DNA of 64,000 bases from Minisyncoccota bacterium (GCA_041663185.1 JBAZQY010000002.1:74629-138628), one strand, 5' to 3'; counted from the stretch's first letter, positions 3,439 to 55,066 are shown. Notes: generated by a model from the letters alone, not told the origin. Numbers and translations are program-made.

Positions 3439-5634
3439 ATGTCCAATAACATATTCAAGCTTAAAAGTAATTTTTCTCCAGCCGGTGATCAGCCGAAGGC
3501 AGTTTCCGAGTTGCTAAATGGTCTTAAAAAGGGAATGAATAAACAGACATTACTTGGTGCTACGGGGACAGGGAAGACTTTTACTATTGCCAATGTAATT
3601 GAAAAATGGAATAAACCAACTTTAGTGATTGCTCACAACAAGACGCTAGCAGCACAGCTTGCTCAGGAATTTCGAGAGTTTTTCCCTGACTCGGCTGTTC
3701 ATTACTTTGTCTCGTATTATGATTATTATCAACCTGAGGCCTACATGCCAGTGACTGATACTTATATTGAAAAGGACGCTCAAATAAATAAAGAAATTGA
3801 CCGACTTCGTCACGCTACCACCCAATCGTTACTTACACGACGCGATGTGATTATTGTGGCTTCGGTGTCGTGTATTTACGGTCTGGGTAGTCCAGAAGAA
3901 TATGAAAAAGTAAATCTGAAACTAAATGTTGGAATGAAAATTGGTAGGACAGAATTAATGAAGCAATTAATCGGAATTCATTTTGAGAGAACCAATGCCG
4001 ATATAACACCAGGAACTTTTCGTTCAATTGGAGCGAAGGTAGAAGTTATGCCGATCTCGGAAACTTTTATTTATCAAATCGAATTTGAAGGAGGAGCAAT
4101 TTCAAGAATTGCGAAAGTTGATCCAGTTTCTTCACACATAATTAAAGAAGAAAAAAACATTTTTCTATTTCCCGCCAAGCATTTTATTACAAATTCTGAG
4201 CAATTAAAGATAGCGGTAAAAAATATTAAAGATGAACTTAATTTTCAGCTTAAAAAATTTGAGAAAGAAGGGAAACTTCTCGAAGCTGAAAGAATAAAAA
4301 GAAGAACGAATTATGACTTAGCGATGATCAGAGAAATTGGATATTGCAATGGAATAGAAAATTATTCAAGACAGATGTCCGGGAAAAAAGAAGGGGAAGC
4401 TCCAGAAACCTTACTTGCGTATTTTAAGGGTGATTTTCTGACAATTATAGATGAATCTCACGTGACCCTCCCTCAAATTGGTGGAATGTATGCGGGGGAT
4501 GCTTCGCGGAAAAATACGCTTGTGGAATTTGGTTTTCGACTGCCGTCAGCAAAAGATAATCGACCGTTAAAGATTAATGAGTTTGAAGAAAGAACTGGAC
4601 AAACTATTTATGTCTCTGCAACTCCAAGTGAAAAAGAAAAATCAATGAGTGCCCAAATCGTCGAGCAGATAATTCGCCCAACCGGACTTATTGACCCAGA
4701 AGTTATTGTCAGACCCGTTAGTGCGTTTACAAGAGAATCTTCTGAAAAAAATCGCTTATCCCTCTCCGCTCCTTCGGAGCTCCGGCGCGCCCACACCTAC
4801 GATTTTTTGTCAGAAGATTCTCTCTCCAACGCCTACCCTGGCCAAATTCAAGATTTTATTATTGAAGCGGAAAAAACAATCAAAAAAGGTTTTCGAGTTA
4901 TTGCCACAACTTTGACCAAGAAAATGGCCGAAGATTTATCTGTTTATTTAAAAGAGAAGGGAATAAAAGCAGAGTATTTACATAGTGAAATTAAAACTAT
5001 CGAGCGCATTCAAATTCTTACCCAATTTAGAAAAGGAGAAATCGATATTCTAGTCGGAGTGAATTTGCTTCGTGAGGGTTTGGATTTGCCAGAACTCGCA
5101 CTCATTGGTATTTTAGATGCCGATAAGGCTGGATTTTTACGCTCTGAAACATCTCTTATCCAGACTATCGGACGAGCGGCAAGAAATGTGGAGGGGAAAG
5201 TTATTTTGTATGCTGATGTAATGAATGATGCACTTGAAAACGCAATCGGGGAAACAAATCGTCGTCGTAATATCCAGATAGCTCATAATAAAAAACACAA
5301 CATTACTCCAAAAACAATTATAAAAAGAATTAAAGATATTACTGAAGAGCTAGAAGACAAACATGAAAAGGCGGTGAATTTAGAGCTTGGTTTAGACGTA
5401 GAGATATTCAAAAAAGCTTTTGAAAAAAATAAAAGTAATCGCGGAAAGGGGGAGCGGGAGTCAGTTAAGAATTTACTACTTTCAGATGAAGATAGGAATA
5501 AGGTTGTCTATGAGAAAATAATTAAAATGAAAGAGAGGGAAATGAATAAAGCCGTCCGAGAACTGGACTTCGAAACAGCGGCAATTTTGCGTGATGAGAT
5601 AATAGTGCTAAAAGAGAAAATGGAGGTTAAGTAG
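3439..5634 (+). CDS. uvrB: Excinuclease ABC subunit B (UvrB). It carries an in-frame subfamily-A repeat-element insertion at 4732-4823.
   Basis: GDQPKAV, GATGTGKTF, YFVSYYDYYQPEAY, the helicase motifs, the beta-hairpin and a C-terminal UVR domain (ELDFETAAILRDEI) are all present. It is about 70 aa longer than usual because of the insertion between RPV and the TTLTKKMAEDL block. Confidence 0.95.
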   Translation: MSNNIFKLKSNFSPAGDQPKAVSELLNGLKKGMNKQTLLGATGTGKTFTIANVIEKWNKPTLVIAHNKTLAAQLAQEFREFFPDSAVHYFVSYYDYYQPEAYMPVTDTYIEKDAQINKEIDRLRHATTQSLLTRRDVIIVASVSCIYGLGSPEEYEKVNLKLNVGMKIGRTELMKQLIGIHFERTNADITPGTFRSIGAKVEVMPISETFIYQIEFEGGAISRIAKVDPVSSHIIKEEKNIFLFPAKHFITNSEQLKIAVKNIKDELNFQLKKFEKEGKLLEAERIKRRTNYDLAMIREIGYCNGIENYSRQMSGKKEGEAPETLLAYFKGDFLTIIDESHVTLPQIGGMYAGDASRKNTLVEFGFRLPSAKDNRPLKINEFEERTGQTIYVSATPSEKEKSMSAQIVEQIIRPTGLIDPEVIVRPVSAFTRESSEKNRLSLSAPSELRRAHTYDFLSEDSLSNAYPGQIQDFIIEAEKTIKKGFRVIATTLTKKMAEDLSVYLKEKGIKAEYLHSEIKTIERIQILTQFRKGEIDILVGVNLLREGLDLPELALIGILDADKAGFLRSETSLIQTIGRAARNVEGKVILYADVMNDALENAIGETNRRRNIQIAHNKKHNITPKTIIKRIKDITEELEDKHEKAVNLELGLDVEIFKKAFEKNKSNRGKGERESVKNLLLSDEDRNKVVYEKIIKMKEREMNKAVRELDFETAAILRDEIIVLKEKMEVK
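4732..4823 (+). repeat. Structured palindromic repeat element, subfamily A, copy A1. It is in-frame inside uvrB and is translated as ...SSEKNRLSLSAPSELRRAHTYDFLSEDSL...
   Basis: The core cgcttatccctctccgctccttcggagctccggcgcgcccacacctac (4753-4800) is about 70% GC in a genome of about 33% GC. It is flanked by a copy-specific inverted repeat, agagaatcttctgaaaaaaatcg versus cgattttttgtcagaagattctct. The inner hairpin is gctcc-ttcg-ggagc. Confidence 0.8.
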
Positions 5635-5654
5635 AAAGGTGATATACTTAAAGG

Positions 5655-6476
5655 ATGAAAAAGAACTTAATTTTAGTTATATTTTTAATAATAATTTTAA
5701 TAATTATTGGATTTATTTTTAAAAATTCGAATACCAAGAAGGGTACTTCTGAGACAGAAAAACCGTTAATCTTAAACGAGGGGTTAATTGTAGCCGATTC
5801 ATACGAGACGAAAACCATGAATCTTGACGATCCATATTCAACATTTGATGTAAAGTATCCGTATTTTAAAAATGCTGATGTTAGTTTCAATGCTAATGTA
5901 GAGACATTTGTAAAAAATAAAATGGATGAGCATGTAAAAAATAGTGCGGATAGTTGGCAGGCTCGATATAACACACAAGTGAGGGGTGATAATATTCCAA
6001 AAGTTCCCGCAACCACAGATGATAAATTTTCTTTCATTTCCGATTTCACTATTATTCAAAGTAATTCATCATATATAAGCTTCGTTTTAAACTATGGGGG
6101 CTTTAGTGGAGGAGCTCACGGATATGAAAATAAAGTTTCTTTTAGTTATGATGTGAAAAATAAAAAAGTAATTGAACTGGAAGATTTGTTTACTAATAAT
6201 CCCGATTATTTAACTTATCTCTCCGAGCAATCGCGTGAAATTCTCAAAAAAGAATTTGCAACAGTCAGTGAGGAGGACAGAAAAAATTCAGACCCCGAAG
6301 CGATTAAAGAATATGTTGATAACATAGTTTCGATGATCCAAGAAGGAACTGAACCGAAAGCAGAAAACTTTAGTGTTTTCACTTTCACGCCAGAAAAAAT
6401 AAAAATCTATTTTGCCCAATACCAAGTCGGGCCGTATGTTATCGGAATGCCAACAGTAGAAGTGGATAGGGAATAA
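5655..6476 (+). CDS. Secreted or membrane-anchored protein. It is probably a DUF4163/DUF3298-type (RsiV-like) envelope protein.
   Basis: It has a signal/TM N-terminus. YPYF...NANVE and GGFSGGAHGYEN match the DUF4163/DUF3298 pattern. This is recalled from memory and is low certainty. Confidence 0.4.
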   Translation: MKKNLILVIFLIIILIIIGFIFKNSNTKKGTSETEKPLILNEGLIVADSYETKTMNLDDPYSTFDVKYPYFKNADVSFNANVETFVKNKMDEHVKNSADSWQARYNTQVRGDNIPKVPATTDDKFSFISDFTIIQSNSSYISFVLNYGGFSGGAHGYENKVSFSYDVKNKKVIELEDLFTNNPDYLTYLSEQSREILKKEFATVSEEDRKNSDPEAIKEYVDNIVSMIQEGTEPKAENFSVFTFTPEKIKIYFAQYQVGPYVIGMPTVEVDRE

Positions 6477-6483
6477 AAAAAGC

Positions 6484-6818: not shown

Positions 6819-9611
6819 ATGAAAAAAAACGAAGAAGGAAAAATAATAATAAAAGGGGCGCGGACACATAACTTGAAGAATATTAGCGTCGAGATGCCTC
6901 GGAATAAGATGGTTGTTATTACAGGTATGTCAGGAAGTGGAAAGAGCTCGCTTGCTTTTGATACTATTTTTGCTGAAGGCCAACGTCGGTATGTTGAGTC
7001 GCTTTCAGCGTATGCCAGGCAATTTTTAAACCAAATGCCAAAGCCAGATGTCGATGAGATAACAGGTCTTTCGCCGGCAATTTCGATTGACCAGAAATCT
7101 CGTTCGAACAATCCACGCTCGACAGTGGCGACGATTACAGAGATATATGATTATCTTCGAGTTTTATATTCTCGCATTGGACATCCGCATTGTCCGCTTT
7201 GTGGGGATGAAATAAAAAAACTTTCGAACGAAGAGATAATAAATTTTGCCTTGGATAAAATAAAAGAATTTCAAAAAAGTTCAAAAAAGAAAAAAGTTCT
7301 TGGTGTGGAATGGGACGAAACACCAATTTCTATTTTATCTCCAGTTGTTCGTGGCCGAAAAGGTGAATACTATCAGCTTCTGTATGATTTACTTGGCAAA
7401 GGCTTTACAGAAGTTCGCATGGATGGAAATATTAAAAAGTTGCGCGAGCGAATAGATATATCAAAAACAAAAACACACAACATTGAGGTTATAGTGGATT
7501 CTTTTCAAATCCATGAATTTAAAGATAATCCGAGCGATGCTCGAATGCGACTATCTGAAGCGGTGGAGAGAGCAATAATTGAGTCTGAGGGATTGGTTGT
7601 AATTGCTTTTGGGGATATAACTTTGCAGAAACACGCAAATTCTCCGCGCTTAACCCTAAAGGGCTCCGACACGACGGAGAATTTGCGTGTTTCTGCTCCG
7701 CTCCCTAATTATGAAGAATTTTTATTATCGTCAAAATTCTCTTGTCCACGAGATGGATTTGCGTTCCCGGAAATTGAACCACGACTTTTTTCTTTTAATT
7801 CTCCATACGGAGCTTGTCCGACATGTAATGGACTTGGGACAAAATATTTCGGTGGAACGGAAATATGTGATGATTGTCATGGTGCTCGACTAAGAGTTGA
7901 AGCCCTTAATGTGTTTATTGGGGAAAAAGTGAAGCAGGAACATAAAAATTCTTCCCGCTTAACCCTAAAGGGCTCCCTGCCCGACAGTGTCAGTCATAGG
8001 CAGGCGGGCGACACGGATAAGAATTTTCATATTCCTGCTTCGCTTAATATCGTTGACCTCACGCATTTATCGATAGACAAAGTTGCGGACTTTTTTATTG
8101 AACTTGAATTAAATGAACAAGAAAAAGAAATTTCAAATGTAGTGATTAAGGAAATTGAATCGCGTCTTCAGTTTTTATTGAACGTTGGTTTAAATTATTT
8201 ATCATTGGATAGAAAAGCCAATACTTTATCAGGTGGAGAAGCCCAACGTATTCGCCTCGCCAGCCAGCTGGGCTCACGATTAGTTGGAGCACTGTATGTT
8301 CTTGATGAACCGACGATTGGTCTGCACCAACGTGACAATGATAAATTAATTAAAACACTTGAAAATTTGCGTGATATTGGAAATACAATTATTGTTGTTG
8401 AGCACGATGAAGATACAATTTATTCATCGGATTATATCATCGATATTGGGCCAAAAGCCGGAGTCCACGGTGGGGAAGTTATTGTTGCTGATTATTTAGA
8501 CAAACTTCTAAGTGCTCCGACAAACTCTTCAAAATCAAGAACTTTGGCATATTTGCGTAATGAAGAAAGAATTGAAATCCCAGAGAAAAGACGTACGGGT
8601 GAAAAAGGTTCGATCAAAGTTGTTGGGGCAAAAGTTTTTAATATAAAAAACATGAATGTGGAAATTCCGCTCGGCAAGATGGTTACGATTACTGGAGTTT
8701 CTGGGTCTGGTAAAAGTTCTCTGATGTATGAAGTCCTCCATAAAAATCTACAGGCGCGTTATGAACGTAAATACAGAACAGCAACAGTGTTTAACTGCGC
8801 GTCTTTTTCAGGGACAGAATACTTGTCACGAGTAATTTTGATTGATCAATCACCAATCGGACGAACACCACGTTCAAATATTTCTACTTATACTGGCTCG
8901 TTTACTTTTATTCGTGATCTTTTTGCTAGCACCGAAGAAGCTCGTCTTCGGGGTTGGAAGGCCAATAGATTTTCTTTCAATGTAAAAGGGGGTCGTTGTG
9001 AGGCCTGTGAAGGTAACGGTGAGATAGCGGTAGAAATGCATTTCCTACCAACCGTCTATGTGACTTGTGATGTTTGTAATGGTAAAAGATTTGATAAAGA
9101 AACATTAACCATAAAATATAAAAAGAAAAATATTTACGATGTCCTCCAGATGACCGTCGAAGAAGGGTTGAAATTTTTTGAAGATATTCCAAATGTTTAT
9201 GACCGAGTTAAAACCTTAATGGATGTCGGGCTTGGATATGTGAAGCTCGGCCAATCAGCCACAACTCTTTCTGGTGGGGAAGCGCAAAGGGTAAAAATTT
9301 CTTCGGAGCTTTATCGCCCTTATTTGGAGAAAACAATTTATTTACTCGATGAGCCGACTGTCGGGCTTCATTATGATGATGTGGTAAAACTACTTGAGGT
9401 TTTGAATAAGTTAGTAAACAAAGGCAATTCTGTTGTTCTTATTGAACACAATATGGATATTATCAAAAATTCAGATTATATTATTGATGTAGGTCCTGAG
9501 GGAGGACTCGGTGGTGGTAATTTAGTGGCTAAGGGAACGCCAGAAGAAGTGGCCAACAATCCAGCTTCTCATACTGGTAAATATTTGAAAAAAGTGTTGA
9601 GGAGAAAATAA
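6819..9611 (+). CDS. uvrA: Excinuclease ABC subunit A (UvrA). It carries two in-frame subfamily-B repeat insertions.
   Basis: There are two ABC ATPase modules (GMSGSGKSSL and GVSGSGKSSL; LSGGEAQR twice; LDEPT twice) and zinc-finger Cys clusters (CPLCGDEI, CPTCNGLG, CEACEGNG, CDVCNGKRF). It is 930 aa. Confidence 0.95.
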   Translation: MKKNEEGKIIIKGARTHNLKNISVEMPRNKMVVITGMSGSGKSSLAFDTIFAEGQRRYVESLSAYARQFLNQMPKPDVDEITGLSPAISIDQKSRSNNPRSTVATITEIYDYLRVLYSRIGHPHCPLCGDEIKKLSNEEIINFALDKIKEFQKSSKKKKVLGVEWDETPISILSPVVRGRKGEYYQLLYDLLGKGFTEVRMDGNIKKLRERIDISKTKTHNIEVIVDSFQIHEFKDNPSDARMRLSEAVERAIIESEGLVVIAFGDITLQKHANSPRLTLKGSDTTENLRVSAPLPNYEEFLLSSKFSCPRDGFAFPEIEPRLFSFNSPYGACPTCNGLGTKYFGGTEICDDCHGARLRVEALNVFIGEKVKQEHKNSSRLTLKGSLPDSVSHRQAGDTDKNFHIPASLNIVDLTHLSIDKVADFFIELELNEQEKEISNVVIKEIESRLQFLLNVGLNYLSLDRKANTLSGGEAQRIRLASQLGSRLVGALYVLDEPTIGLHQRDNDKLIKTLENLRDIGNTIIVVEHDEDTIYSSDYIIDIGPKAGVHGGEVIVADYLDKLLSAPTNSSKSRTLAYLRNEERIEIPEKRRTGEKGSIKVVGAKVFNIKNMNVEIPLGKMVTITGVSGSGKSSLMYEVLHKNLQARYERKYRTATVFNCASFSGTEYLSRVILIDQSPIGRTPRSNISTYTGSFTFIRDLFASTEEARLRGWKANRFSFNVKGGRCEACEGNGEIAVEMHFLPTVYVTCDVCNGKRFDKETLTIKYKKKNIYDVLQMTVEEGLKFFEDIPNVYDRVKTLMDVGLGYVKLGQSATTLSGGEAQRVKISSELYRPYLEKTIYLLDEPTVGLHYDDVVKLLEVLNKLVNKGNSVVLIEHNMDIIKNSDYIIDVGPEGGLGGGNLVAKGTPEEVANNPASHTGKYLKKVLRRK
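7623..7700 (+). repeat. Structured palindromic repeat element, subfamily B, copy B1. It is in-frame in uvrA and is translated as ...NSPRLTLKGSDTTENLRVSAP...
   Basis: The core cgcttaaccctaaagggctccgacacga is flanked by the copy-specific inverted repeat aaacacgcaaattctccg versus cggagaatttgcgtgttt. The conserved outer ends are ttgcagaaa and tttctgctccg. Confidence 0.8.
7931..8041 (+). repeat. Structured palindromic repeat element, subfamily B, copy B2. It is in-frame in uvrA (NSSRLTLKGSLPDSVSHRQAGDTDKNFHIPAS) and carries a nested 31-bp palindromic insertion.
   Basis: The outer inverted repeat is gaagcagg versus cctgcttc, and the arms are aaaattcttcc versus ggataagaatttt. The core cgcttaaccctaaagggctcc...gacacgga is split by ctgcccgacagtgtcagtcataggcaggcgggc, which is itself an inverted repeat (ctgcc/ggcag, gcccg/cgggc). 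Confidence 0.75.
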
Positions 9612-9913: not shown

Positions 9914-11215
9914 ATGAAAGTCAAAGATTTAAAAAAATTTAAATTGCCAGAGAAACCAGGAGTTTATTTTTTTTACAAAAATAAAGATATTTTATATATA
10001 GGCAAGGCCACTTCGCTTCGCGATAGGGTAAAAAGCTATTTTGGTAAAGATCTCATAGTAACTCGTGGGCCAATTATTCTCGACATGGTAACTCAGGCAA
10101 CCTCGATTAAATGGCAGGAAACTGACAGTGTTCTAGAAGCGCTTATCTTAGAGGCAAATCTGATTAAAAAATATCAGCCGAAGTATAATACTAAAGAGAA
10201 AGATAATAAGAGTTTTAATTATGTTTGTATTACAAAGGAGGAAATACCCAAAGTTTTGGTTGTTCGTGGAAGGAACTTAAATTACCGAGCTGAAGGAAAG
10301 TTTTTCTCAGGTCCTCGGACGAGGGAGGACGAGGGGCCAGACCATTCAAAAAATCTTTCCTTCGGCTCGGTCTATGGCCCATTTCCAAATGGTTCACAAT
10401 TAAAAGAGGCGATGAGAATCGTGCGCAGGATTTTCCCATATATTGATGAACAATCCAGCAAAAAAAATAACAAAGAATTCTACAAACAATTGGGGCTAGT
10501 TCCTATTATTGGGGAGACAAAGCAGAAACATAAAAATTTTTATGTTTCTGCTTTGTCTGATTACAAGAAAAATATCAGAAATTTGAAGTTATTTTTTGAA
10601 GGCAAAAAGAAAAGAATAATTTCAAATTTAAAGAAAGAAATGGCAGCATTTTCAAAATCGCGAGATTTTGAAAATGCTGCTCGAATTCGCGACCAGATTT
10701 TTGCTTTAAATCATATAAACGATGTGGCTTTAATCAAAGAGGATAAGATATTCGGAAGTCCGACTTCCGAATATAGAGTTGAGGCATATGACATAGCTCA
10801 CATGTCAGGGCAAAATATGGTTGGAGTTATGACAGTTATGGAAGATGGACTACTCGCCAAAAATGAATATAAAAAATTTATAATTCGTTCGCAAAAATCT
10901 TCGAATGATACCGGCGCTCTTGAGGAAGTTCTTTCTCGTCGCTTTCGACATATAGAATGGGGCTTACCAAACCTCATTGTTGTCGATGGAAGTACTGCCC
11001 AGATAAATGTTGCCAAACGAGTTTTAAATAGATATCAATTCAAAATCGCAGTTGTTTCTGTTGTCAAAGACGACAAACATAAAGCCAAAGCAATAATGGG
11101 GGATGAAATACTCATCAAAAAATACAAAAAAGAGATTCTCCTAATAAACAGCGAAGCGCACCGTTTTGCAATTGCCTTTCATAAACAAAAAAGAAATAAA
11201 AATTTCCTCAGATAG
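9914..11215 (+). CDS. uvrC: Excinuclease ABC subunit C (UvrC), short form. It has GIY-YIG, UVR and endonuclease domains but no C-terminal (HhH)2. It carries an in-frame subfamily-C repeat insertion.
   Basis: GVYFFYKNKDILYIGKATSLRDRVKSYF is the GIY-YIG motif. FENAARIRDQIFAL is the UVR domain. The RNase H-like region is present. The 433-aa length is shorter than the canonical roughly 600 aa. Confidence 0.8.
   Translation: MKVKDLKKFKLPEKPGVYFFYKNKDILYIGKATSLRDRVKSYFGKDLIVTRGPIILDMVTQATSIKWQETDSVLEALILEANLIKKYQPKYNTKEKDNKSFNYVCITKEEIPKVLVVRGRNLNYRAEGKFFSGPRTREDEGPDHSKNLSFGSVYGPFPNGSQLKEAMRIVRRIFPYIDEQSSKKNNKEFYKQLGLVPIIGETKQKHKNFYVSALSDYKKNIRNLKLFFEGKKKRIISNLKKEMAAFSKSRDFENAARIRDQIFALNHINDVALIKEDKIFGSPTSEYRVEAYDIAHMSGQNMVGVMTVMEDGLLAKNEYKKFIIRSQKSSNDTGALEEVLSRRFRHIEWGLPNLIVVDGSTAQINVAKRVLNRYQFKIAVVSVVKDDKHKAKAIMGDEILIKKYKKEILLINSEAHRFAIAFHKQKRNKNFLR
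10285..10370 (+). repeat. Structured repeat element, subfamily C, copy C1. It is in-frame in uvrC and is translated as ...SGPRTREDEGPDHS...
   Basis: The core gtcctcggacgagggaggacgaggggccagaccat has an internal GGACGAGG x2 direct repeat. It is flanked by a copy-specific 26-bp inverted repeat, ccgagctgaaggaaagtttttctcag versus tcaaaaaatctttccttcggctcgg. Confidence 0.8.
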
Positions 11216-11223
11216 GAAAGATT

Positions 11224-11300
11224 ATATGCAAAAATTATGAGTAGGTGTGGGCGCGCGCCGAGCGAAGCGAGGTAGGGATAAGCGAATAATTTTTGTATAT
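11224..11300 (-). repeat. Structured palindromic repeat element, subfamily A, copy A2. It is intergenic between uvrC and ddl, in reverse orientation.
   Basis: The reverse complement is cgcttatccctacctcgcttcgctcggcgcgcgcccacacctac. The arms are atatgcaaaaattat versus ataatttttgtatat. The ORF-track N-terminal extension of ddl (MGARRAKRGRDKR...) is just this element translated. Confidence 0.8.
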
Positions 11301-11369
11301 AATCTTTCCTATTTTCAAATAAAAGCTATTTCAATTCCTATTATTTTAAATAATTGTTATAATGAATTT

Positions 11370-30582: not shown

Positions 30583-30653
30583 ATAATTTTGGGATAGGGG
30601 GGAGGGGGCGCATTTTCGAATCTTACAAATTAAAATAACCCCATATTAATCAT

Positions 30654-30984: not shown

Positions 30985-31006
30985 CATTCTGCAGAATGTT
31001 AGAATG
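30977..31006. promoter_or_regulatory. Palindromic operator CATTCTAACATTCTGCAGAATGTTAGAATG upstream of acyP.
   Basis: It is a perfect 30-bp inverted repeat. It overlaps the end of the arsR-like gene and lies about 8 nt upstream of the acyP ATG. Confidence 0.6.
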
Positions 31007-31013
31007 TTAAAAT

Positions 31014-34111: not shown

Positions 34112-35503
34112 TTAAAATAGGGAAATAATTGCGGCGATAGCAGTAATGCTCATAAGTCCGATTGTCAGCCAGCCGACTATTTTTTGTGATTTTGAATTTT
34201 TATGGTAACCCATTATTTTTTCATTGCTACTGATATGGACAATAAAAATTAAAATTATCGGTGAAATGATACCATTTGTGATTGCTGAATAAATCAAAGC
34301 TTTGATTGGGTGAATACCAATAAAGTTTATAAGAATACCAATTAAAATTGAGATGATGATAATTGTGTAAAAAGCGCGAGCTTTTTTGAATCGACGATAC
34401 AATCCTTCTTTCCAGCCAAAACTTTCTGAAATTGCATACGATGTCGAGCTGGCCAGTACCGGGACGGCAAGCATACCAGTTCCAATAATACCAATTGCAA
34501 ATAAAACAGTAGCGAAGCTTCCGGCAAATGGCAGAAGGGCTAACGCGGCGTCACTGGCTGTGTCGATATCATGAACTCCATTTACAAAAAGTGTATTGGC
34601 ACAAACGGCGATAATGAAAAACATCACTAAGTTTGACAAGAACATTCCTGTCCAGATATCTCTTCTCATTTTTTTAATTTCTATTTTATTTGTTCCTCGT
34701 CGGGAATGAACAGTTGTTTTACCCTCGGCTATTTCTTCTTCAACTTCTTGTGACGTTTCCCAGAAGAAAAGATAAGGGGAAATTGTTGTCCCCAAGATTG
34801 CAGTAATTAGAAGTATTTGGCTTTTAGAAAAAGTGATATGGGGGATAAGACTATGATCGAGTAAATTACCCCAATCCATATGAATGATAAACCCAGTAAT
34901 AATGTATGAAAAAAGAGTAATTACTAACCATTTTAAATACCGGGCGTATTTTTTGTAAGGAATGATAACAGGCAAAGTTAAACACACTATTCCAATAGCA
35001 ATAATTAAAAAAGTGAAAGAGACACCAGGAGTGATTAATTGAAAAGCTGTCGCCATTGCTCCTAAATTAGCGCCGATATTAAAAATATTAGCAATCAGAA
35101 GAACGATAGTTACAAAATAAAGTAATTCTTTTTTATAAGAATGTTTGATATTAGCAGCCAGTCCGTTACCAGTCACAAGGGCGATACGGGCGCACATTTC
35201 TTGGACAGTTATAATTAAGGGAAGGGTCCAGACAGATAACCACAACAGATTTGGTCCAAACTGAGCTCCAGCTTGTGAGTAAGTGGCAATTCCCGAAGGG
35301 TCATCATCAGCAGCGCCAGTTATGATGCCCGGGCCTAATTTTTTGATATAGTCTTCTCCTTCTTCAAGAAGAGTTTCTTTTTTTATGGTAGAAGTGGCGC
35401 CAGAAACTTCTTTGACGAGGTCCTCGGACGAGGGAGGACGAGGGGCCAGACCATCGCCAAAGGAGTTTCTGGCGTCACTATTTTTATTTTCGGATGTATC
35501 CAT
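34112..35503 (-). CDS. mntH: NRAMP-family divalent metal (Mn2+/Fe2+) transporter MntH. It has an in-frame subfamily-C repeat in its N-terminal cytoplasmic tail.
   Basis: GPGIITGAADDDPSGIATYSQAGAQFG is the Nramp signature. It has 11-12 TM helices. The N-terminal tail ...GDGLAPRPPSSEDLVKEVSG is encoded by the repeat. Confidence 0.85.
   Translation of the reverse strand: MDTSENKNSDARNSFGDGLAPRPPSSEDLVKEVSGATSTIKKETLLEEGEDYIKKLGPGIITGAADDDPSGIATYSQAGAQFGPNLLWLSVWTLPLIITVQEMCARIALVTGNGLAANIKHSYKKELLYFVTIVLLIANIFNIGANLGAMATAFQLITPGVSFTFLIIAIGIVCLTLPVIIPYKKYARYLKWLVITLFSYIITGFIIHMDWGNLLDHSLIPHITFSKSQILLITAILGTTISPYLFFWETSQEVEEEIAEGKTTVHSRRGTNKIEIKKMRRDIWTGMFLSNLVMFFIIAVCANTLFVNGVHDIDTASDAALALLPFAGSFATVLFAIGIIGTGMLAVPVLASSTSYAISESFGWKEGLYRRFKKARAFYTIIIISILIGILINFIGIHPIKALIYSAITNGIISPIILIFIVHISSNEKIMGYHKNSKSQKIVGWLTIGLMSITAIAAIISLF
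35397..35473 (+). repeat. Structured repeat element, subfamily C, copy C2. It lies inside the 5' end of the minus-strand mntH and is in-frame.
   Basis: The core gtcctcggacgagggaggacgaggggccagaccat is identical to C1. It is flanked by a 21-bp inverted repeat, cgccagaaacttctttgacga versus tcgccaaaggagtttctggcg. Confidence 0.8.
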
Positions 35504-35552: not shown

Positions 35553-37058
35553 ATGGCTTTGAACAAACCTAACAAGATTCAGATAATTAAATATGCTCCT
35601 CCGCCTCCTGATCTGCCGACTCTTGGTAAATCAGATCCGAGCGAGGTAGTATTTATCGGACGCACCAACTACGTGGCGGCTCTCGAAGAGAAAAAATTTG
35701 TCTTTGGAATCAAGCGCATCGACCGTCGCCGTCATATGTACATTATTGGTAAGTCTGGAGTCGGTAAATCAAAACTTTTGGAATTAATGATTCGCCAAGA
35801 TATCGCCTATGGCCAAGGAGTCTGTGTGATTGACCCACACGGAGAGTTGATAGATGATATTTTAAACTTCATGCCGAAAGAAAGAATCGAAGATGTCTGT
35901 ATTATTGACCCAGGGGATATTGATTATCCATCATCATTTAATCCACTTTCAAATATTGATCCAGCCTTCAAACATCAACTCACTCAAGGGTTGATAGAAG
36001 TTTTGCGTAAACAATTCGGAGCAAACTGGACGCCACGTCTGGAGCACGTTTTTCGTTTTACAACTTTGGCGCTACTGGATTATCCTCACGCGACAATGCG
36101 TGGAATGATTTCGATGCTGACCGACCGTAACTATCGTCAAAAGGTTGTTGAGTATATCGAAGATGACATGGTCAAAAGATTCTGGGCAATTGAATTCGCC
36201 GACTGGTCTGAAAAGTTCGATACCGATGCTATTATTCCGCTTGTTAATAAATTAGGGCAGTTTCTTTCTGATCCAATGCTTCGAAACATTTTCGGACAAA
36301 AAGAAAATAAAATTGATTTGGAAAAATTGATGAATGAACAAAAAATTCTTTTGATTAATTTGTCTAAAGGAAAAATAGGGGAGGAGAATTCTTCTTTCTT
36401 TGGAGCAATGTTCTTGACCAAAATCAAACAAGCTGGAATGGCGCGAGCAAAACTTGAACCACAAGATAGACATGACTTTTATCTGTATGTCGACGAGTTC
36501 CATAATATTGTGACAGATACCTTCGAAAATATTCTCTCCGAAGCGCGTAAATATGGAATAAATCTTATCGTAGCACATCAATACGTCGGCCAACTTTTGC
36601 CAAAAGTTGAGCAAGCTGTTCTTGGAAATACTGGTTCGATTATTACATTCCGTGTGGGAGGTGATGATGCCGTCAAACTCAAATCTGACTTTGCACCGAT
36701 TTTTGAAGTTAAAGATATGATTAACTTAGGGGTTGGAGAATTTTTTATAAAAATGACAATTGATGGAGAAAGCTATGACCCATTCTCAGCCGAGACACTT
36801 CGAGTTCTGCCAGCGACTCATCCATCGTATCGCCAAGAGGCAATTGATGCATCTCGTCGCAAATACGCAATCTTGGCCGGCGAGGCCCAGAGATTGATTG
36901 CGGAAGAAGAAGCAACCATCATTCGTTCAGCACAAGAAAAAGCCGCAATTGTTGGAAATAAAAAGCCAGGAGAAGAAGACAAAGCAGAAGGAGAAGAAAA
37001 AACAAACACCAAAGGTGAATCTCCAAAAGAAGAAAAGGGCGGAGAACCACTAATATAA
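35553..37058 (+). CDS. TraD/VirD4/TrwB-like (type IV coupling protein-like) P-loop ATPase with an acidic, K/E-rich C-terminal tail.
   Basis: HMYIIGKSGVGKSKLLELMI is the Walker A motif. VIDPHGEL, YLYVDEFHN (Walker B) and AHQYVGQL follow. It is paralogous to the 43513 gene. Confidence 0.55.
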   Translation: MALNKPNKIQIIKYAPPPPDLPTLGKSDPSEVVFIGRTNYVAALEEKKFVFGIKRIDRRRHMYIIGKSGVGKSKLLELMIRQDIAYGQGVCVIDPHGELIDDILNFMPKERIEDVCIIDPGDIDYPSSFNPLSNIDPAFKHQLTQGLIEVLRKQFGANWTPRLEHVFRFTTLALLDYPHATMRGMISMLTDRNYRQKVVEYIEDDMVKRFWAIEFADWSEKFDTDAIIPLVNKLGQFLSDPMLRNIFGQKENKIDLEKLMNEQKILLINLSKGKIGEENSSFFGAMFLTKIKQAGMARAKLEPQDRHDFYLYVDEFHNIVTDTFENILSEARKYGINLIVAHQYVGQLLPKVEQAVLGNTGSIITFRVGGDDAVKLKSDFAPIFEVKDMINLGVGEFFIKMTIDGESYDPFSAETLRVLPATHPSYRQEAIDASRRKYAILAGEAQRLIAEEEATIIRSAQEKAAIVGNKKPGEEDKAEGEEKTNTKGESPKEEKGGEPLI

Positions 37059-42480: not shown

Positions 42481-42581
42481 TTTGAATATTTTATACCTTA
42501 CTAGCTAAAATTCACTATTAGATGCTATAAGTAGAAGATTTTAAGGAAGTGAATAATAGACAGGAAGTGTATTAAAATTAT

Positions 42582-42621
42582 CAGTGGTAAAAAATCCACG
42601 GCCGTGGATTTTTTACCACTG
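42582..42621. repeat. Perfect 40-bp palindrome (cagtggtaaaaaatccacgg|ccgtggattttttaccactg).
   Basis: It is a 20-bp perfect inverted repeat with no loop. It is intergenic. Confidence 0.6.
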
Positions 42622-42750
42622 AAAAGTAAATGAGTAAGGCAAGACCTTGCTCACTCGAAAATTATGGAATACAAATTATTTAAAATCCCTATCGTAATCC
42701 CTAGTCATTTCCCTAGGGATTATTAATTTTATAAAAATAAAAACCCTGGC

Positions 42751-43512: not shown

Positions 43513-45807
43513 ATGGACAACGAAATTCCACACAATCGAGACGTCACTTATTTTGGAAAGACGAACTTTCGAAATAGCGATGACATCTTTGGAATAAAAC
43601 GTAAAGACCGTCGCCAGCACATGTACGTACTCGGAAAATCTGGTACTGGTAAATCTGTGCTCTTATCTAATCTTATTGTTCAGAATATTCAAAATGGAGA
43701 AGGTGTTTGTGTGGTTGACCCGCACGGAGAATTGGTGGAAGAGATTCTTCACCTTATCCCTGACTATCGAGCAAAAGATGTAATTTATTTTAATCCGGCT
43801 GATGCGGATTTTCACATTGGCTTTAATGTTATACAACTCGATGACCCAAAGTATAAGCACTTGGTAGCTTCAGGGTTGATGGGAATTTTCACGAAAATTT
43901 GGGCTAACGCTTGGAGTTCTCGTATGGAATACATTTTGAATAATGCAATTTTAGCGCTCCTTGATACTCCCGGAACGACGCTTTTGGGAATTCCAAGGTT
44001 GCTTGTGGACAAAGATTATCGTCAAATGATAATTGGTAATTTGAAAGATCCTGTTGTCAAAGCTTTTTGGGTTCACGAGTATGAACAGTGGCGTGATCAA
44101 TTCAGAAATGAAGCGATCGCTCCGATTCAAAACAAAGTTGGACAATTCCTCTCGACTTCGATTATTCGTAACGTCGTCGGTCAACAGAAATCGACCATTG
44201 ATATTTTTAAAATAATGAATGAGGGTAAAATTTTCCTTGTGAACGTTTCAAAGGGGCGTATCGGTGAAGATAACTCGGCACTTTTGGGAGGAATGATTAT
44301 TACCAAAATTCAGCTTGCGGCGATGGAGCGTGTCCGAATTCCAGAAGACGAAAGAAAAGACTTCTATCTATATGTCGACGAATTTCAGAACTTTGCGACT
44401 GACTCGTTTGCAAACATTTTATCTGAAGCTCGTAAGTATCGTCTCAATCTTACTATTGCTCACCAATATACAGCTCAACTTGAGAATAAAGACGGGTCAA
44501 AAGTTCGTGACGCGGTTTTTGGTAACGTTGGAACGATGATAATATTCCGCGTGGGTGCTGATGATGCCGAATTTTTAGAAAAAGAGTTTGAGCCAGAATT
44601 TACTGCTCAGGATTTAGTGAACTTACCAAACTTTCATATCTATCTAAAATTAATGATTGACGGGATTACTAGTCGGCCATTTTCGGCATCGACCCTACCA
44701 CCCATAAAAGTAGATTTATCAAAAGGAATTAAAGACAAAATTATAGAATCATCTCGTAAGCTTTATACTCGTTCGAGAGAAGTAGTTGAGGGTGAAATTA
44801 CAAAATGGAGTGGTATGCTCCAAATGACTGACGGGGAATCAAAATATAAAGCAACTTGTTCCAACTGTAAACAAGAGACGATGGTACCCTTTGAACCCAA
44901 AGAAGGTCGCCCCGTATATTGTAAAGATTGTATGTTCAAAATTAAAAATGGCGAACTTAATCCTGGGCAGGGATTTGTGGCTTCTCGTTCTGCAGGCCAG
45001 ACAGAAAAAGCTTCGACGGAACCGTTAGCTCTTTTAGGAATTGAATTCAAATCAACAACAGGTCCTGGTGGCGCAGGGACTCGGTCATCTACCCCTAGTG
45101 ATTCAGGGAGCTTTTCAAAAGGTTCTGAACAAACATATCAAAAACCAGACTATTCTAATAAAAAAGATTATCAAAATAAACCGAATTATTCTAATAGACC
45201 CAATAATGGGAACAAGCCGAATTTTCCAGAGAGAAAAAAACATGCTGGCCCGTCGCCACTTTTGAAAGGGTTATTAGAAAAAATTGGAATGGGTAAAAAT
45301 GAGGAAGACCAGAAGGGAAATTTAAAAGTAGAAGAAGTTAAAATTCCGACACCCGCTCCGATGTCTTTGTCTAGTTTAAAAAGAAATAATAATGGAACCC
45401 CTCAAGTACCAGCTACACCACCAGTCACAAAGGAAGCTTCCGAGGAGAATAAGGCATCACTTAAAGATGTATTAGCAAGAGTGACGAATAATGTTCCCCC
45501 TAAACAAGAGGAAGTTAAACCAGAACCTGTTGTAAAAAAACCCCCTTCCGTACAAGGTTCTATCGAGGCCAAGGAAGAGCCCAAAGTGGAAGAAATAAAG
45601 AAAGAAGAAGTAAGGCCAGAACCTGTGATACAACCTGAAATTAAAATCGAGGAGGCAAAGCCTGCTTCCACACAAAGCTCCAGCGATGCAAAGCCCGCCT
45701 CCGCCTTAAGCTATAGTGAGGCGAAGGGAGACAAAGATGATTCTTGGCAGAAACCTAAAGCAAAAAAAGAAGTCCCTGAAGATGTTTTACGTAAATTATT
45801 AGAGTAA
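43513..45807 (+). CDS. TraD/VirD4-like coupling-protein-type P-loop ATPase with a C-terminal zinc ribbon and a long low-complexity tail.
   Basis: HMYVLGKSGTGKSVLLSNLI, VVDPHGEL, YLYVDEFQN and AHQYTAQL are present. The zinc ribbon is CSNCKQ...CKDC. The tail has KPEPV/KEE repeats. It is paralogous to the 35553 gene. Confidence 0.55.
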   Translation: MDNEIPHNRDVTYFGKTNFRNSDDIFGIKRKDRRQHMYVLGKSGTGKSVLLSNLIVQNIQNGEGVCVVDPHGELVEEILHLIPDYRAKDVIYFNPADADFHIGFNVIQLDDPKYKHLVASGLMGIFTKIWANAWSSRMEYILNNAILALLDTPGTTLLGIPRLLVDKDYRQMIIGNLKDPVVKAFWVHEYEQWRDQFRNEAIAPIQNKVGQFLSTSIIRNVVGQQKSTIDIFKIMNEGKIFLVNVSKGRIGEDNSALLGGMIITKIQLAAMERVRIPEDERKDFYLYVDEFQNFATDSFANILSEARKYRLNLTIAHQYTAQLENKDGSKVRDAVFGNVGTMIIFRVGADDAEFLEKEFEPEFTAQDLVNLPNFHIYLKLMIDGITSRPFSASTLPPIKVDLSKGIKDKIIESSRKLYTRSREVVEGEITKWSGMLQMTDGESKYKATCSNCKQETMVPFEPKEGRPVYCKDCMFKIKNGELNPGQGFVASRSAGQTEKASTEPLALLGIEFKSTTGPGGAGTRSSTPSDSGSFSKGSEQTYQKPDYSNKKDYQNKPNYSNRPNNGNKPNFPERKKHAGPSPLLKGLLEKIGMGKNEEDQKGNLKVEEVKIPTPAPMSLSSLKRNNNGTPQVPATPPVTKEASEENKASLKDVLARVTNNVPPKQEEVKPEPVVKKPPSVQGSIEAKEEPKVEEIKKEEVRPEPVIQPEIKIEEAKPASTQSSSDAKPASALSYSEAKGDKDDSWQKPKAKKEVPEDVLRKLLE

Positions 45808-47212: not shown

Positions 47213-47298
47213 GAAAACGGAGCAGAAATTTGAAAATTATTCGCGCTTTACCCTAAAGGGCTCCGACACGACTCATAATTTTCAAATTTCTGCTCCGT
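47213..47298 (+). repeat. Structured palindromic repeat element, subfamily B, copy B3 (intergenic). It forms a large hairpin acting as a bidirectional terminator between convergent genes.
   Basis: The 27-bp perfect inverted repeat is aaaacggagcagaaatttgaaaattat versus ataattttcaaatttctgctccgtttt, around the core tcgcgctttaccctaaagggctccgacacgac. A T-run follows. Confidence 0.8.
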
Positions 47299-47300
47299 TT

Positions 47301-47879
47301 TTAACCTATTTTTTCTAACGCTTTTGGAATTTTTTTGAAATCTTTTATTAGTGTTTCTCTCATTCCGCCATTATACAAAGCGGCGGCGGGATGATATAAG
47401 GGAAGGAACGCTTGTTTGCCGAGTTCTGGGGTGGTTTTTATCAAAAGTTTACCGTGAATGTCGGATATTTTTTCAGTAGGAAAGAATCTAGTCATTGAAT
47501 GTCGGCCAAGAAAAACAATTAATTTGGGAGAAATTATTTTTAATTCATTTATAAGCCATTCGTTGCAGGCTTCTTTTTCTTCAGGTTCAGGGTCACGATT
47601 GTTTGGTGGACGATATTTTACAATATTTGTGACATAAATATCTTCACGTTTTTTTCCGATACCCATTAGCATTTCTTCTAGAAACTTTCCGGCGGATCCG
47701 ACAAATGGAATTCCTTTTAGGTCTTCATTTTTACCCGGCGCTTCACCAATAAAAACAATTTCGCTTTCTGCATTTCCGTTGCCAAAAACAGCCTGGGTGG
47801 CTGTTTTTCTCAATCCACACTCGCAATTCTCCTGCCAATACTTATTTAATTCGTCTAATTTTTCACGTTTTGATAGCAT
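47301..47879 (-). CDS. Family-4 uracil-DNA glycosylase.
   Basis: GEAPGKNEDLKGIPFVGSAGKFL is the family-4 UDG motif A. HPAAALYN is motif B. An Fe-S Cys cluster is at the N-terminus. Confidence 0.8.
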   Translation of the reverse strand: MLSKREKLDELNKYWQENCECGLRKTATQAVFGNGNAESEIVFIGEAPGKNEDLKGIPFVGSAGKFLEEMLMGIGKKREDIYVTNIVKYRPPNNRDPEPEEKEACNEWLINELKIISPKLIVFLGRHSMTRFFPTEKISDIHGKLLIKTTPELGKQAFLPLYHPAAALYNGGMRETLIKDFKKIPKALEKIG

Positions 47880-49838: not shown

Positions 49839-50963
49839 ATGAATGTCAAAGAATATGTGGATATCAAAAATTATTCCACCCTTAAAATAGGTGGGCAGTT
49901 TCGCTATTTTGCAGAAATAGATAATAAAAAAGAGCTGAAGGACGTTTATGATTTTGCGGAACAAAAGAATATTCCTGTGTTTATATTGGGAGGTGGTTCA
50001 AATATTGTTTTTTCCGATGGAGTTATAAATGTTTTAGCTCTGAAGGTTGAAATTAAAGGTTTCGACATAATAAATGAAGACGACGATTTTGTTGATATAA
50101 AAGTTGGGGCGGGAGAAATTTGGGATGAAATTGTCGAAAAAACCATCGAGATGAATTTATCGGGGCTTGAAGCTCTTTCGGCCATTCCAGGTACTGTCGG
50201 GGCAACACCAGTTCAAAATGTCGGAGCTTATGGAGCAGAAGTTAAAGACACGATTATTTCTGTAGAGGTTTTTGATATTAAAAATCAAACGATAACTTTT
50301 CTATCAAATGAGGATTGTAAATTCGGATATCGAGATAGTATTTTCAAAAATGAAGCCAAGGGTAAATATGTCATAACGGCGGTGACCTATAGATTGAAAA
50401 ATATAGACATAGACCAGCAAGATATTCCTTCTAAAAATCGCTTATCCCTACCGCATCCTTCGGATTCGGCGCACGCCCACACCTACGATTTTTATAAGCA
50501 ATATCTTGCTGGTCTTCCGGTTATGAATTACCCAGGAGTTAAAAAGTATTTTGAAGATAAAAAAATAGAAAATCTCACCTTGAAACAAATTCGGGAGGCG
50601 ATAATAGAGATAAGAAAAGAGAAATTACCAAATCCAAAAATAATTCCGAATGTTGGCTCATTTTTTAAAAATCCAATTGTTGAAAATAAAATAGCTGAGG
50701 ACATTAAGGAAAAGTTTCCTAATTTGAGATTATTTCCAGTTGATGAAAAAATAACAAAAATTCCCGCTGGCTGGCTTATCGAAAATGCTGGGTTAAAAGG
50801 GAAGTCGCTTGGTAATATTTCTGTCTATGATAAAAATGCACTTGTCTTAATAAATAATGGAAATGCTTCAAAAGAAGATTTACTAGAAGCAAAAAATGAA
50901 ATAGTTAAAATAGTCAAAGAAAAATTCGGAATAACCTTAGAGCAAGAACCCGAGATTTTATAA
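49839..50963 (+). CDS. murB: UDP-N-acetylenolpyruvoylglucosamine reductase MurB, carrying an in-frame subfamily-A repeat insertion.
   Basis: The FAD-binding domain (LKIGGQ...ILGGGSNIVF, GLEALSAIPGTVGATPVQNVGAYG) and the C-terminal domain are present. The insert is translated as ...KNRLSLPHPSDSAHAHTYDFYKQ... Confidence 0.8.
   Translation: MNVKEYVDIKNYSTLKIGGQFRYFAEIDNKKELKDVYDFAEQKNIPVFILGGGSNIVFSDGVINVLALKVEIKGFDIINEDDDFVDIKVGAGEIWDEIVEKTIEMNLSGLEALSAIPGTVGATPVQNVGAYGAEVKDTIISVEVFDIKNQTITFLSNEDCKFGYRDSIFKNEAKGKYVITAVTYRLKNIDIDQQDIPSKNRLSLPHPSDSAHAHTYDFYKQYLAGLPVMNYPGVKKYFEDKKIENLTLKQIREAIIEIRKEKLPNPKIIPNVGSFFKNPIVENKIAEDIKEKFPNLRLFPVDEKITKIPAGWLIENAGLKGKSLGNISVYDKNALVLINNGNASKEDLLEAKNEIVKIVKEKFGITLEQEPEIL
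50414..50512 (+). repeat. Structured palindromic repeat element, subfamily A, copy A3. It is in-frame in murB.
   Basis: The core cgcttatccctaccgcatccttcggattcggcgcacgcccacacctac is flanked by a 27-bp copy-specific inverted repeat, ccagcaagatattccttctaaaaatcg versus cgatttttataagcaatatcttgctgg. Confidence 0.8.
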
Positions 50964-52963: not shown

Positions 52964-52969
52964 ATAAAT

Positions 52970-54009: not shown

Positions 54010-54034
54010 TGGGTGAGTATACTACAAGAACATC

Positions 54035-54964
54035 TTATTTTCCACCCTCTTGGCGGGCAGACAAAAACTTTTTTATTTCTTTTAAAACTTTTGTTTCAGA
54101 GCCATTTTTTCTTGGGTCAATCCAAATAATATTTGCGTCGCGTTTGAACCAGGTTTTTTGACGTTTGGCATAATGCCAGATTGCTGTATTTAATTCCTCA
54201 AGCATCTTATTTTTAGGAAGTTTCCGTTGTAAATATTGCGATACGTACCTGTATTCAAGACCGAGCTCATTCATTCGCTTCCACGAGACACCGTTTTTAT
54301 GTAAATTTTCAATTTCTTTAATCATCCCTTCTCTAATTCGCGCGAATAGGCGACTACGGATTTTTTCTTTTAGAATTTCAGGTGGTAAAGTAAGACCAAT
54401 TTTTAAAACCTCATAATTTTGCAAAGGAAGGACCTTTGCAAGGAGAGGGACCTTACCTAGAGCTTTGGCTATTTCAATAGCGCGAATTAATCTGATTTTA
54501 TTATTTTTATCGATTGTTTTTGCTCGGGCTGGGTCTAATTTTTCTAAATACCCCAATAATGCTATCGCTGTTTTTGGGTAAAGTTTTTCACGGAGTTTTT
54601 TATTGGGTGGAACTTTTGGAAAGGTTGTTTCATTTGTGATTGCATCAATATAAAATCCTGTGCCTCCGCAAATAATTGAAACCTTCCCACGTTTATTTAT
54701 TTCTTCAATTTTTTTAAAAGCTCTCTTTTGAAAATCACTCACCGAAAAAACGCGTGAAGGGGAAGAAATATCAAGCAGATGATGGGGAACCCCACGCATT
54801 TCTTTTTTTGTGATTTTACCTGTTCCTAGGTTCATTCCCTTATAGACCTGACGTGAATCAGCAGAAATTATTTCCCCGTCAATTTTTTTAGCAATTTCCA
54901 CAGCAAAATCACTCTTTCCAGTGGAGGTTTGACCGAGTATTACAACTAGTTTATTTTTTCTCAT
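54035..54964 (-). CDS. miaA: tRNA dimethylallyltransferase MiaA
   Basis: VVILGQTSTGKSDFAVEIAKKIDGEIISADSRQVYKGMNLGTGK is the P-loop plus MiaA signature. Confidence 0.85.
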   Translation of the reverse strand: MRKNKLVVILGQTSTGKSDFAVEIAKKIDGEIISADSRQVYKGMNLGTGKITKKEMRGVPHHLLDISSPSRVFSVSDFQKRAFKKIEEINKRGKVSIICGGTGFYIDAITNETTFPKVPPNKKLREKLYPKTAIALLGYLEKLDPARAKTIDKNNKIRLIRAIEIAKALGKVPLLAKVLPLQNYEVLKIGLTLPPEILKEKIRSRLFARIREGMIKEIENLHKNGVSWKRMNELGLEYRYVSQYLQRKLPKNKMLEELNTAIWHYAKRQKTWFKRDANIIWIDPRKNGSETKVLKEIKKFLSARQEGGK

Positions 54965-54986
54965 ATTTGGTTAGAAAAGAAAAGTA

Positions 54987-55066
54987 ATATTCAAAATTTA
55001 TGAGTAGGTGTGGGCGCGCCGGAGCCCGAAGGGCGGAGAGGGATAAGCGAATAAATTTTGAATATT
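54987..55066 (-). repeat. Structured palindromic repeat element, subfamily A, copy A4. It is intergenic upstream of miaA, in reverse orientation.
   Basis: The reverse complement is cgcttatccctctccgcccttcgggctccggcgcgcccacacctac. The arms are aatattcaaaatttat versus ataaattttgaatatt. Confidence 0.8.

Follow-up and report, generated by a model that had tools for sequence, protein, structure and literature searches.

Compensated base changes in the cores of a palindromic repeat family of CPR bacteria: structured RNA or DNA repeat?

A stretch of 64,000 nucleotides from a Minisyncoccota bacterium (GCA_041663185.1, JBAZQY010000002.1:74629-138628; hereafter the window, ~35% GC) carries four copies of a repeat, subfamily A, in which two nearly invariant boxes surround a short variable segment. 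The first-pass annotation of this DNA claimed that the variable centre forms a small stem-loop in every copy, built of different base pairs each time around a TTCG-type loop, and took this covariation as the classic signature of selection on RNA structure. Does the locus then betray a functional RNA, or can compensated changes arise in another way? The data presented below lead us to an answer that we hold to be somewhat more probable than its competitors taken together: subfamily A would be a family of nested palindromic DNA repeats, akin to REPs (repetitive extragenic palindromes) and the Rickettsia palindromic elements (RPEs), maintained at the DNA level and widespread in the Candidate Phyla Radiation (CPR/Patescibacteria). 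The first-pass annotation saw a real feature yet over-read it, since covariation is significant but partial, and it overlooked the dominant structure, an outer stem of 25 bp.

The 5' box, CGCTTATCCCT, occurs exactly four times in the window, at 4753(+), 11274(-), 50439(+) and 55039(-), and the 3' box, GGCGCGCCCACACCTAC, is found 22-26 nt past each of them, with 0, 1, 2 and 0 mismatches, respectively. No such pairing of boxes is expected by chance in the window, and the near-invariance of the boxes that had been noticed at first is borne out. Each core tops a long inverted repeat (21-30 bp, 83-96% complementary) whose sequence is unlike among the four copies. Under DNA parameters, each of the four elements gives a long hairpin whichever strand is folded (z-scores of -5.7 to -9.0). 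Element A1 (4723-4832, + strand, inverted repeat I7; z = -6.05 on the + strand and -6.59 on the opposite one) is a whole palindromic insertion in uvrB (open reading frame, ORF, 3439-5634). Its core extends from 4753 to 4800, with the 5' box at 4753-4763, the variable segment at 4764-4789 and the end of the 3' box at 4790-4800, and its inner hairpin, GCTCC-TTC-GGAGC (4768-4780, + strand), has 5 bp and a triloop. Element A2 (11212-11312, - strand, I12) lies between uvrC and ddl and has an outer stem of 27 bp, 96% complementary, and a core at 11241-11284. The centre of this core (11272-11258, - strand) is the quasi-palindrome CC-TC-GC-TTC-GC-TC-GG, that is, 2 bp, a tandem TC/TC mismatch and 2 bp. 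Element A3 (50411-50515, + strand, I9; outer stem 30 bp, 93% complementary) is inserted in murB (ORF 49839-50963), between the FAD-binding and C-terminal domains. Within its core (50439-50486), the inner hairpin CCGcATCC-TTC-GGATtCGG (50451-50469, + strand) has eight positions, one of them a C·T mismatch; its uninterrupted stretch is ATCC-TTC-GGAT at 50455-50465. Element A4 (54976-55076, - strand, I20; outer stem 26 bp, 96% complementary) is situated upstream of miaA, where it overlaps the end of ORF 54991-55443; its core covers 55004-55049 and its inner hairpin, GCCC-TTC-GGGC (55024-55034, - strand), has 4 bp and a triloop.

The stems first proposed for A1, A3 and A4 do exist (5, 4 and 4 bp, that of A3 being extendable), but their loops are TTC and not TTCG, because one G had been counted twice. 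The register of these stems leaves only three nucleotides at the apex, and a register producing a cUUCGg tetraloop is incompatible with the rest of the stem. As for the cgc-ttc-gcg-like stem attributed to A2, there is no CGC/GCG pairing there, only the two 2-bp blocks around the TC/TC mismatch.

Both genic copies of the window are in frame. Pfam UvrB domains flank A1 on both sides, and residues 428-467 of UvrB, which A1 encodes, fall in a gap of the alignment to the Protein Data Bank, with no counterpart in solved UvrB structures; hence, the whole A1 palindrome amounts to a 40-residue insertion. Orthologous copies of A3 are present in two of the other CPR loci studied (designated L followed by a number), L029 and L033. 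The sequence NRLSLSAPSELR is an example of a predicted peptide spanning the UvrB/MurB insert. The earlier statement that the two genic copies are translated therefore holds as far as the reading frame is concerned, while translation itself we infer from the intact ORFs.

In species genomes of CPR/Patescibacteria, a search for the 5' box followed, after 8-38 nt, by the 3' box yielded 65 exact copies, spread over 57 loci of more than 25 genomes, and at least 80 further metagenome loci contain A copies. After removal of duplicates, the set analysed comprised 151 distinct elements with 97 distinct variable segments, its metagenome part being those among the matches listed. Copies with slightly mutated boxes are scarce (only 4 in 488 kb). 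Copies follow a stop codon at 0-20 nt or interrupt uvrB and murB without loss of frame. Intergenic copies mostly come after an ORF and have co-directional or convergent genes around them, and the 20 of the 151 that reside inside ORFs, uvrB and murB included, bring neither a stop codon nor a frameshift.

Across this family, complementarity of the variable centre is real. In a structure-blind MAFFT alignment of the 65 copies, with the halves of the variable segment anchored to the boxes, 57.7% of the cells of a nine-pair inner helix are paired, compared to 41.5% after shuffling, and the covariation score is 0.301, compared to 0.113 for shuffles and 0.06-0.22 for slid partners. None of 500 shuffles reached the observed pairing or the observed covariation, and eight of the nine pairs show double changes. 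When the 97 segment types are scored with no alignment at all, 23 contain a perfect stem of 6 bp or more, where 2.5% is expected (p = 3e-16), and 13 a stem of 8 bp or more, where 0.1% is expected. The inner stems are mutually unrelated in sequence (AAAATTTTCGC, GATTTCTGCC, AGCCCCGCC, CCGAATCC, CTCCGACC, GCAAGT and others), and compensated change is also visible on a fine scale, as in GCAAGT/ACTTGC versus GCAAGC/GCTTGC. Complementarity so far above chance, with unrelated stems and true double substitutions, means that something favours the hairpin. The idea that such pairing arises by chance in GC-rich segments, or that four copies made a misleadingly small sample, could appeal to the fact that shuffled GC-rich segments often give stems of 3-4 bp, to the mean RNAfold z of the variable segments, which is only -0.5, and to A2, which has no real stem. 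It is nevertheless already refuted by the stem counts and the shuffles just described, and we give it practically no credence. The larger set of copies, in which the first-pass annotation had allowed that covariation might fail to appear, thus supports it.

It seems equally clear that the inner hairpin is not a general feature. About two thirds of the elements (102 of 151, A2 among them) have at most three contiguous Watson-Crick pairs in their centre, which contradicts the notion of a hairpin in every copy and makes compensation a partial phenomenon. The commonest variants are quasi-palindromes with tandem pyrimidine mismatches (GCTCG-TTC-CTCGC, GCTCGC-AA-GCTCGC, CCGCTCC...CCGCTCC), which have multiplied nonetheless. 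Loops vary freely (TTC, ATTA, CAGC, TCAA, CATT, CAA and others). Four different loops top the stem CCGAATCC/GGATTCGG within a single genome, and the apex is therefore the most variable point.

The outer stem carries a much stronger signal. Over the 151 elements it averages 25 bp, 94.6% of them Watson-Crick, and in the alignment of 65 copies 86.9% of its cells are paired, with double changes in 12 of the 13 proximal pairs. Among copies with related arms, 444 of the 858 differing positions have changed on both sides and are still paired. Folding with RNAalifold, which had been recommended as a check of the inner hairpin, gives a consensus in which the outer stem is the sole helix and the inner hairpin is left out. 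The latter is the innermost, optional layer of a palindromic repeat of ~100 nt. In this repeat, an AT-rich, copy-specific outer stem of ~25 bp, often with a distal GC clamp and A/T runs, bears at its tip a 46-nt GC-rich core, made of the two near-invariant, unpaired boxes around the short variable segment, often a small hairpin. In the arms of the intergenic (TC-type) copies, an AT-rich, semi-conserved part (positions 1-17) is succeeded by one of ~50% GC (positions 18-25), and positions 26-30 are rich in A on the 5' side and in T (53-65%) on the 3' side. Sequence conservation is absent over positions 18-30 (information content 0.1-0.3 bit). A separate observation concerns the arm position 10-12 from the core (alignment columns 14-16/95-97), which is hypervariable yet usually paired. 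There, A-T, C-G, G-C and T-A all occur, together with a recurrent A·C mismatch, equivalent to a G·U wobble on the G-rich strand.

Comparison of orthologous sites shows how these layers evolve. Among 244 comparisons, the A element is present in both genomes in 108 and the other genome is without it in 136. At 33 of these 136 sites, the spacer is shorter than 25 nt, stop and start codons almost abut and there is no pre-existing hairpin; empty sites in related genomes include spacers of 0-15 nt. Such short, hairpin-free sites imply that whole palindromes are gained or lost. Where both copies are present, the proximal arms are kept (L008 and L012 are identical at 19/19 bases, and their distal differences are compensated), and the variable segment usually differs, being sometimes inverted, while sometimes the core is that of another family. 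For example, a core of the D5 family (see below) is found in the window where L009, L016 and L095 carry A cores, and at the uvrB site L054 has a D5-type core, as opposed to the A cores of the window, L051 and L046. Conversely, in 173 non-orthologous pairs with an identical variable segment, identity of the distal arms does not exceed background (0.35 vs 0.35), and copies with similar arms almost always have different variable segments. Identical segments are shared by 10.7% of same-genome pairs versus 0.56% of cross-genome pairs, a 19-fold difference. Cores and arms have separate histories: arms go with the site and cores are exchanged. Since variable segments are common to non-orthologous sites and unlike at orthologous ones, much of their variation represents cassette exchange and not stepwise compensation in place.

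Three simpler schemes were considered and rejected. Arm composition hinted that a core with 17-nt arms inserts into the loops of terminator hairpins, but the empty sites of 0-15 nt have no hairpin, and in L014 the element stands beside, not inside, an ordinary terminator, so that such insertion is not a general rule. The arms are not inverted target-site duplications, their sequences being absent from empty sites, nor are they hypermutable, in view of the 19/19 proximal bases kept between L008 and L012.

Are these palindromes then maintained as RNA or as DNA? The subfamily could be a cis-acting structured RNA (a REP-like stabiliser of 3' ends, a bidirectional terminator or a protein-binding hairpin), whose long stem would present the two boxes in single-stranded form and whose inner hairpin would be a stem of variable length under selection for RNA folding. 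Several observations point this way and weigh against our own reading. The boxes are 100% conserved between orthologous copies, though the flanking proteins are 50-90% identical, while the stems change by compensated substitutions, which is the pattern of an orthologous RNA gene. Full conservation of the boxes implies strong purifying selection or continual homogenisation, unlike what is expected of a purely selfish, decaying repeat. Intergenic copies come right after stop codons, between co-directional or convergent genes, with a distal GC clamp and then a T run. With respect to the surrounding genes, 60 copies are same-sense and 34 antisense; between co-directional gene pairs the counts are 48 and 26 (p = 0.014), a modest bias. 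Mismatches of the A·C type outnumber G·T (71 vs 26), and the G-rich strand folds better under RNAfold in 65/65 copies, two features hinting at a preferred strand that a strand-specific folded molecule could produce. Our own reading also has against it that neither a transposase nor a target-site duplication nor an autonomous partner was found, no protein search having been aimed at RAYT, the Y1 transposase associated with REPs, and that recent whole-element transposition, in the form of identical arms at two sites, was not seen among the compared copies. On the whole, however, the RNA explanation is doubtful. Intermediates of the G·U type account for 9 of 1393 outer-stem cells in the alignment, and G·T for 26 of 3804 outer-stem pairs in the 151 elements, mismatches being chiefly pyrimidine-pyrimidine or A·C. 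Such a near-absence is what one typically sees in inverted repeats of DNA, and not in RNA helices as they evolve. About half of the A·C excess falls at arm positions 10-12 and, in the first 65 copies, mostly in one genome, and the A·C versus G·T comparison is only suggestive as a strand test. The folding advantage of the G-rich strand is probably an effect of composition, and this strand is the one less often transcribed. About 36% of the copies are antisense to their neighbouring genes, and the genic copies divide into 12 sense and 8 antisense. The inner helix, lacking in two thirds of the copies, is missing from the RNAalifold consensus as well. Resemblance to an Rfam family, which had been suggested as a check, was not found: at gathering thresholds only 3 tRNAs were detected in the window, and E-value scans of one A and one B element returned only generic hairpin (miRNA-precursor) matches, far under gathering scores. 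Furthermore, a perfect RNA duplex of 25 bp in the uvrB, murB and leuS mRNAs would be a target of RNase III. The L014 element adjoins a normal terminator and so is not needed for termination. Taken together, the wobble, orientation and strand data fit strict complementarity at the DNA level better than an evolving RNA helix. What stands of the RNA-signature argument is that complementarity is kept above chance; the argument is weakened by the loops, the mismatched variants, the scarcity of G·U, the orientation, the sharing of segments and the precedent of REPs.

An explanation at the DNA level could also take another form, in which the core is the active unit, the boxes are a DNA recognition signal, and the arms and inner hairpin are by-products. 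The boxes would serve either as the target of an enzyme, recombinase or nuclease, by which cores are brought into the tips of hairpins, or as a signal of the DNA-uptake type spread by transformation and recombination. Cores are indeed common to sites and genomes independently of their arms, cores of more than one family are borne by one and the same site or pair of arms, coreless palindromes exist (see below), apex loops are hypervariable on identical stems, as with the four loops on CCGAATCC, and A and B cores have the box CGCTTAWCCCT in common; a bias towards DNA-repair genes is apparent, as reported for REPs. We nevertheless regard this explanation as quite unlikely. No enzyme was found, the clean empty sites without a hairpin mean that whole palindromes also come and go, known uptake sequences are far denser than the ~4 per 64 kb seen here, and no A copy was detected in viral contigs by the box-pattern search. 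One might go further and imagine, as a rather unlikely proposition, that the 46-nt cores (A, B, D5 and others) are independently mobile cassettes that home into, or are swapped between, existing palindrome tips, with the boxes as recognition signal; the agent may be a dedicated enzyme or transformation-driven conversion. If this were true, CPR genomes would carry a cassette-in-hairpin system, and the landing-pad palindromes, some of them in essential genes, would be far older than the cores they now bear.

Under the reading that we prefer, that of nested palindromic repeats maintained as DNA, it is at the DNA level that complementarity of the distal arm, the proximal arm and the inner hairpin would be favoured or renewed. 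One possibility is that the element needs to form a hairpin or cruciform for its spread or repair; another is that template switching between arms corrects quasi-palindromes. Either way, a change in one arm would be copied to the other. Template switching is an established mutational mechanism. The title of one paper (PMC10710096) concerns hairpins that arise through it. The arms would be inherited along with the insertion site. Copies would trade their cores, inner hairpin included, through gene conversion or through renewed insertion at the tips of hairpins, and the inner hairpin would thus be an apical module both exchangeable and dispensable. Genic copies would persist only where they are in frame and would be translated as surface insertions. 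The inner compensated changes look, then, like a general property of palindromic repeats and not like proof of a functional RNA.

Subfamily A is accompanied by other palindromic elements, among which the sister families B and D5 follow the same design. The elements of subfamily B, with the core CGCGCTTAACCCTAAAGGGCTCCGACACGAC in arms of 21-27 bp, lie in the window at 7625-7696, 7927-8045, 47214-47301 and 60492-60561, two of them in uvrA, one in leuS and one intergenic. Their arms have GCAGAAA...AAATTCT in common around a compensated variable block of 5 nt, and the copy at 7927-8045 has an extra nested hairpin, CTGCC...GGCAG, in its core, where A has its variable hairpin. The D5 elements, with the core GGTCCTCGGACGAGGGAGGACGAGGGGCCAGACCA (consensus GGTCCTCGGAnGAGGGAGGACGAGGrGCCAGACCA), are found at 10284-10371, 35393-35479 and 56902-56938, in uvrC, in an Nramp gene and in an intergenic region. 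The copies in uvrC and the Nramp gene have cores identical at 37/37 positions and wholly unrelated palindromic arms. Thirteen further D5 copies were seen in the CPR loci examined, one of them at the uvrB site of L054, which is the A1 site of the window. The uvrC gene also contains a cluster of palindromes (10515-10558, 10579-10629 and 10643-10680), through which its ORF (433 aa) remains open. The cluster includes a 17-bp stem with a 4-nt loop and a perfect, coreless palindrome of 44 nt with B-type arms, perhaps a vacant landing pad, perhaps an excised element. Another palindrome, near-perfect, 48 nt long and without a spacer, TTATCAGTGGTAAAAAATCCACGG/CCGTGGATTTTTTACCACTGAAAA, is located at 42578-42625. 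The CPR loci examined contain 126 coreless long hairpins with stems of 15-31 bp, some of which form families of their own, e.g. AAGGCCGTGCTTTAAAACATAC... and ...CTACAAACTCTGCCA|TGGCAGAGTTTGTAG. A family with a larger core of ~83 nt, CTCTTCTCGAAATGCAC...TTCTGCTGAAAAATT...GCTCGCGCCGTCGC...GCATTTCTCAAAGA, has AAATAG/CTATTT arms and internal hairpins (L130 6128-6248, L145 5497-5613, L025 2242-2354, L042 6285-6416 and others); in some genomes it sits at intergenic sites that hold A elements in others.

A few neighbouring features are of a different kind. The palindromic motif ACATTCCAACATTCTGCAGAATGTTGGAATGT is repeated four times in adjacent intergenic regions (28977-29014, 29705-29742, 30650-30690 and 30970-31010) and resembles a repeated operator-type site more than an element of the core/arm families. 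The ORFs 35553-37058 and 43513-45807 have stretches of DNA that are ~74% identical (repeats D7 and D8) and a P-loop-like GKSGxGKS segment, and judging from their sequence they appear to be paralogous ATPase genes. In L009 (6494-6620), upstream of an A element, there are two tandem perfect hairpin modules of 13 bp, GAATTCAAGATTT-AGTA-AAATCTTGAATTC. In L011, the gene between two nearby A copies begins like thioredoxin reductase, judged by eye from its first residues.

The larger palindromic repeat system is more interesting than the small hairpin that drew attention to it. It spans many CPR lineages, where it would add extra peptides to UvrA, UvrB, UvrC, MurB and LeuRS in extremely streamlined genomes, and the fact that cores and arms evolve independently could indicate that such repeats move, or evolve in concert, in a new way. 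Base changes can be compensated in palindromic DNA repeats where no functional RNA is involved, and covariation-based discovery of RNAs in repeat-rich genomes must allow for this. Searches of the literature with the box sequences gave only coincidental matches, such as the coding sequence of the 3xHA tag, and searches on CPR palindromic elements returned nothing relevant; as far as the searched literature shows, the system has not previously been described.

Parallels with known systems are nevertheless close. RPEs insert in frame at high frequency (PMC10969869), and the housekeeping genes that bear them include uvrB (PMC10969869, PMC3733652). The A family resembles them as a palindrome of ~100-150 nt in a small AT-rich genome, with some copies in frame in housekeeping genes, as seen in the 20 genic elements of the 151, and others intergenic. 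RPEs are read through as an extra peptide, and a transposase of their own is not known. The likeness is one of description and architecture, and extends to another phylum, that of CPR bacteria; in contrast to RPEs, the A family conserves a central core common to many genera, has arms that vary from copy to copy and lets core and arms evolve independently. In REP families, stem residues are replaced by alternative complementary ones and the variable inner loop regions can be self-complementary; REPs follow ORFs closely, in the gaps that separate unidirectional or convergent genes, and some copies lie inside uvrA, uvrB and tRNA synthetase genes (PMC3733652). The A family shares with them this position after ORFs, the complementary stem variants and the self-complementary variable centre, and, taken with its sister families, the insertions in uvrA, uvrB and a tRNA synthetase gene. 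On the reverse strand, its core starts with GTAG(G) and that of B with GTCG, reminiscent of a REP tag, although the invariance of CCTAC is forced by the search pattern. However, this GTAG-like tag lies inside the loop of the outer stem, whereas the REP tag is at the foot of a GC-rich stem. Moreover, the REP unit is a GC-rich stem-loop of 20-40 bp, and the A unit a structure of ~100 nt with an AT-rich, unconserved stem, whose conserved GC-rich boxes are unpaired in the loop of a core that is not self-complementary. Being small, non-coding, multi-copy and hairpin-forming, the A family also recalls SPRITEs and the classical MITEs (miniature transposable elements with inverted repeats; Correia, ERIC, RUP), and its intergenic copies with a GC-rich stem base followed by a T run are reminiscent of SPRITEs and terminators, although the arms of A2 and A4 are AT-only and L014 has a separate ordinary terminator next to its element. 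It differs from classical MITEs in having no conserved terminal inverted repeats, no target duplication visible on comparison of occupied and empty sites, and no known related insertion sequence. A more distant parallel is provided by the GC clusters, or byps, of yeast mitochondria, eukaryotic organellar elements in which GC-rich palindromic modules spread in a very AT-rich genome, inside protein-coding genes, and byps are skipped by the ribosome; since all genic A copies keep the frame and contain no stop codon, reading through them is the simpler interpretation. Among all these systems, the A family sets itself apart by its conserved, unpaired central part, its copy-specific AT-rich stem, its cores common to many CPR genera and the decoupling of these cores from the arms that carry them.

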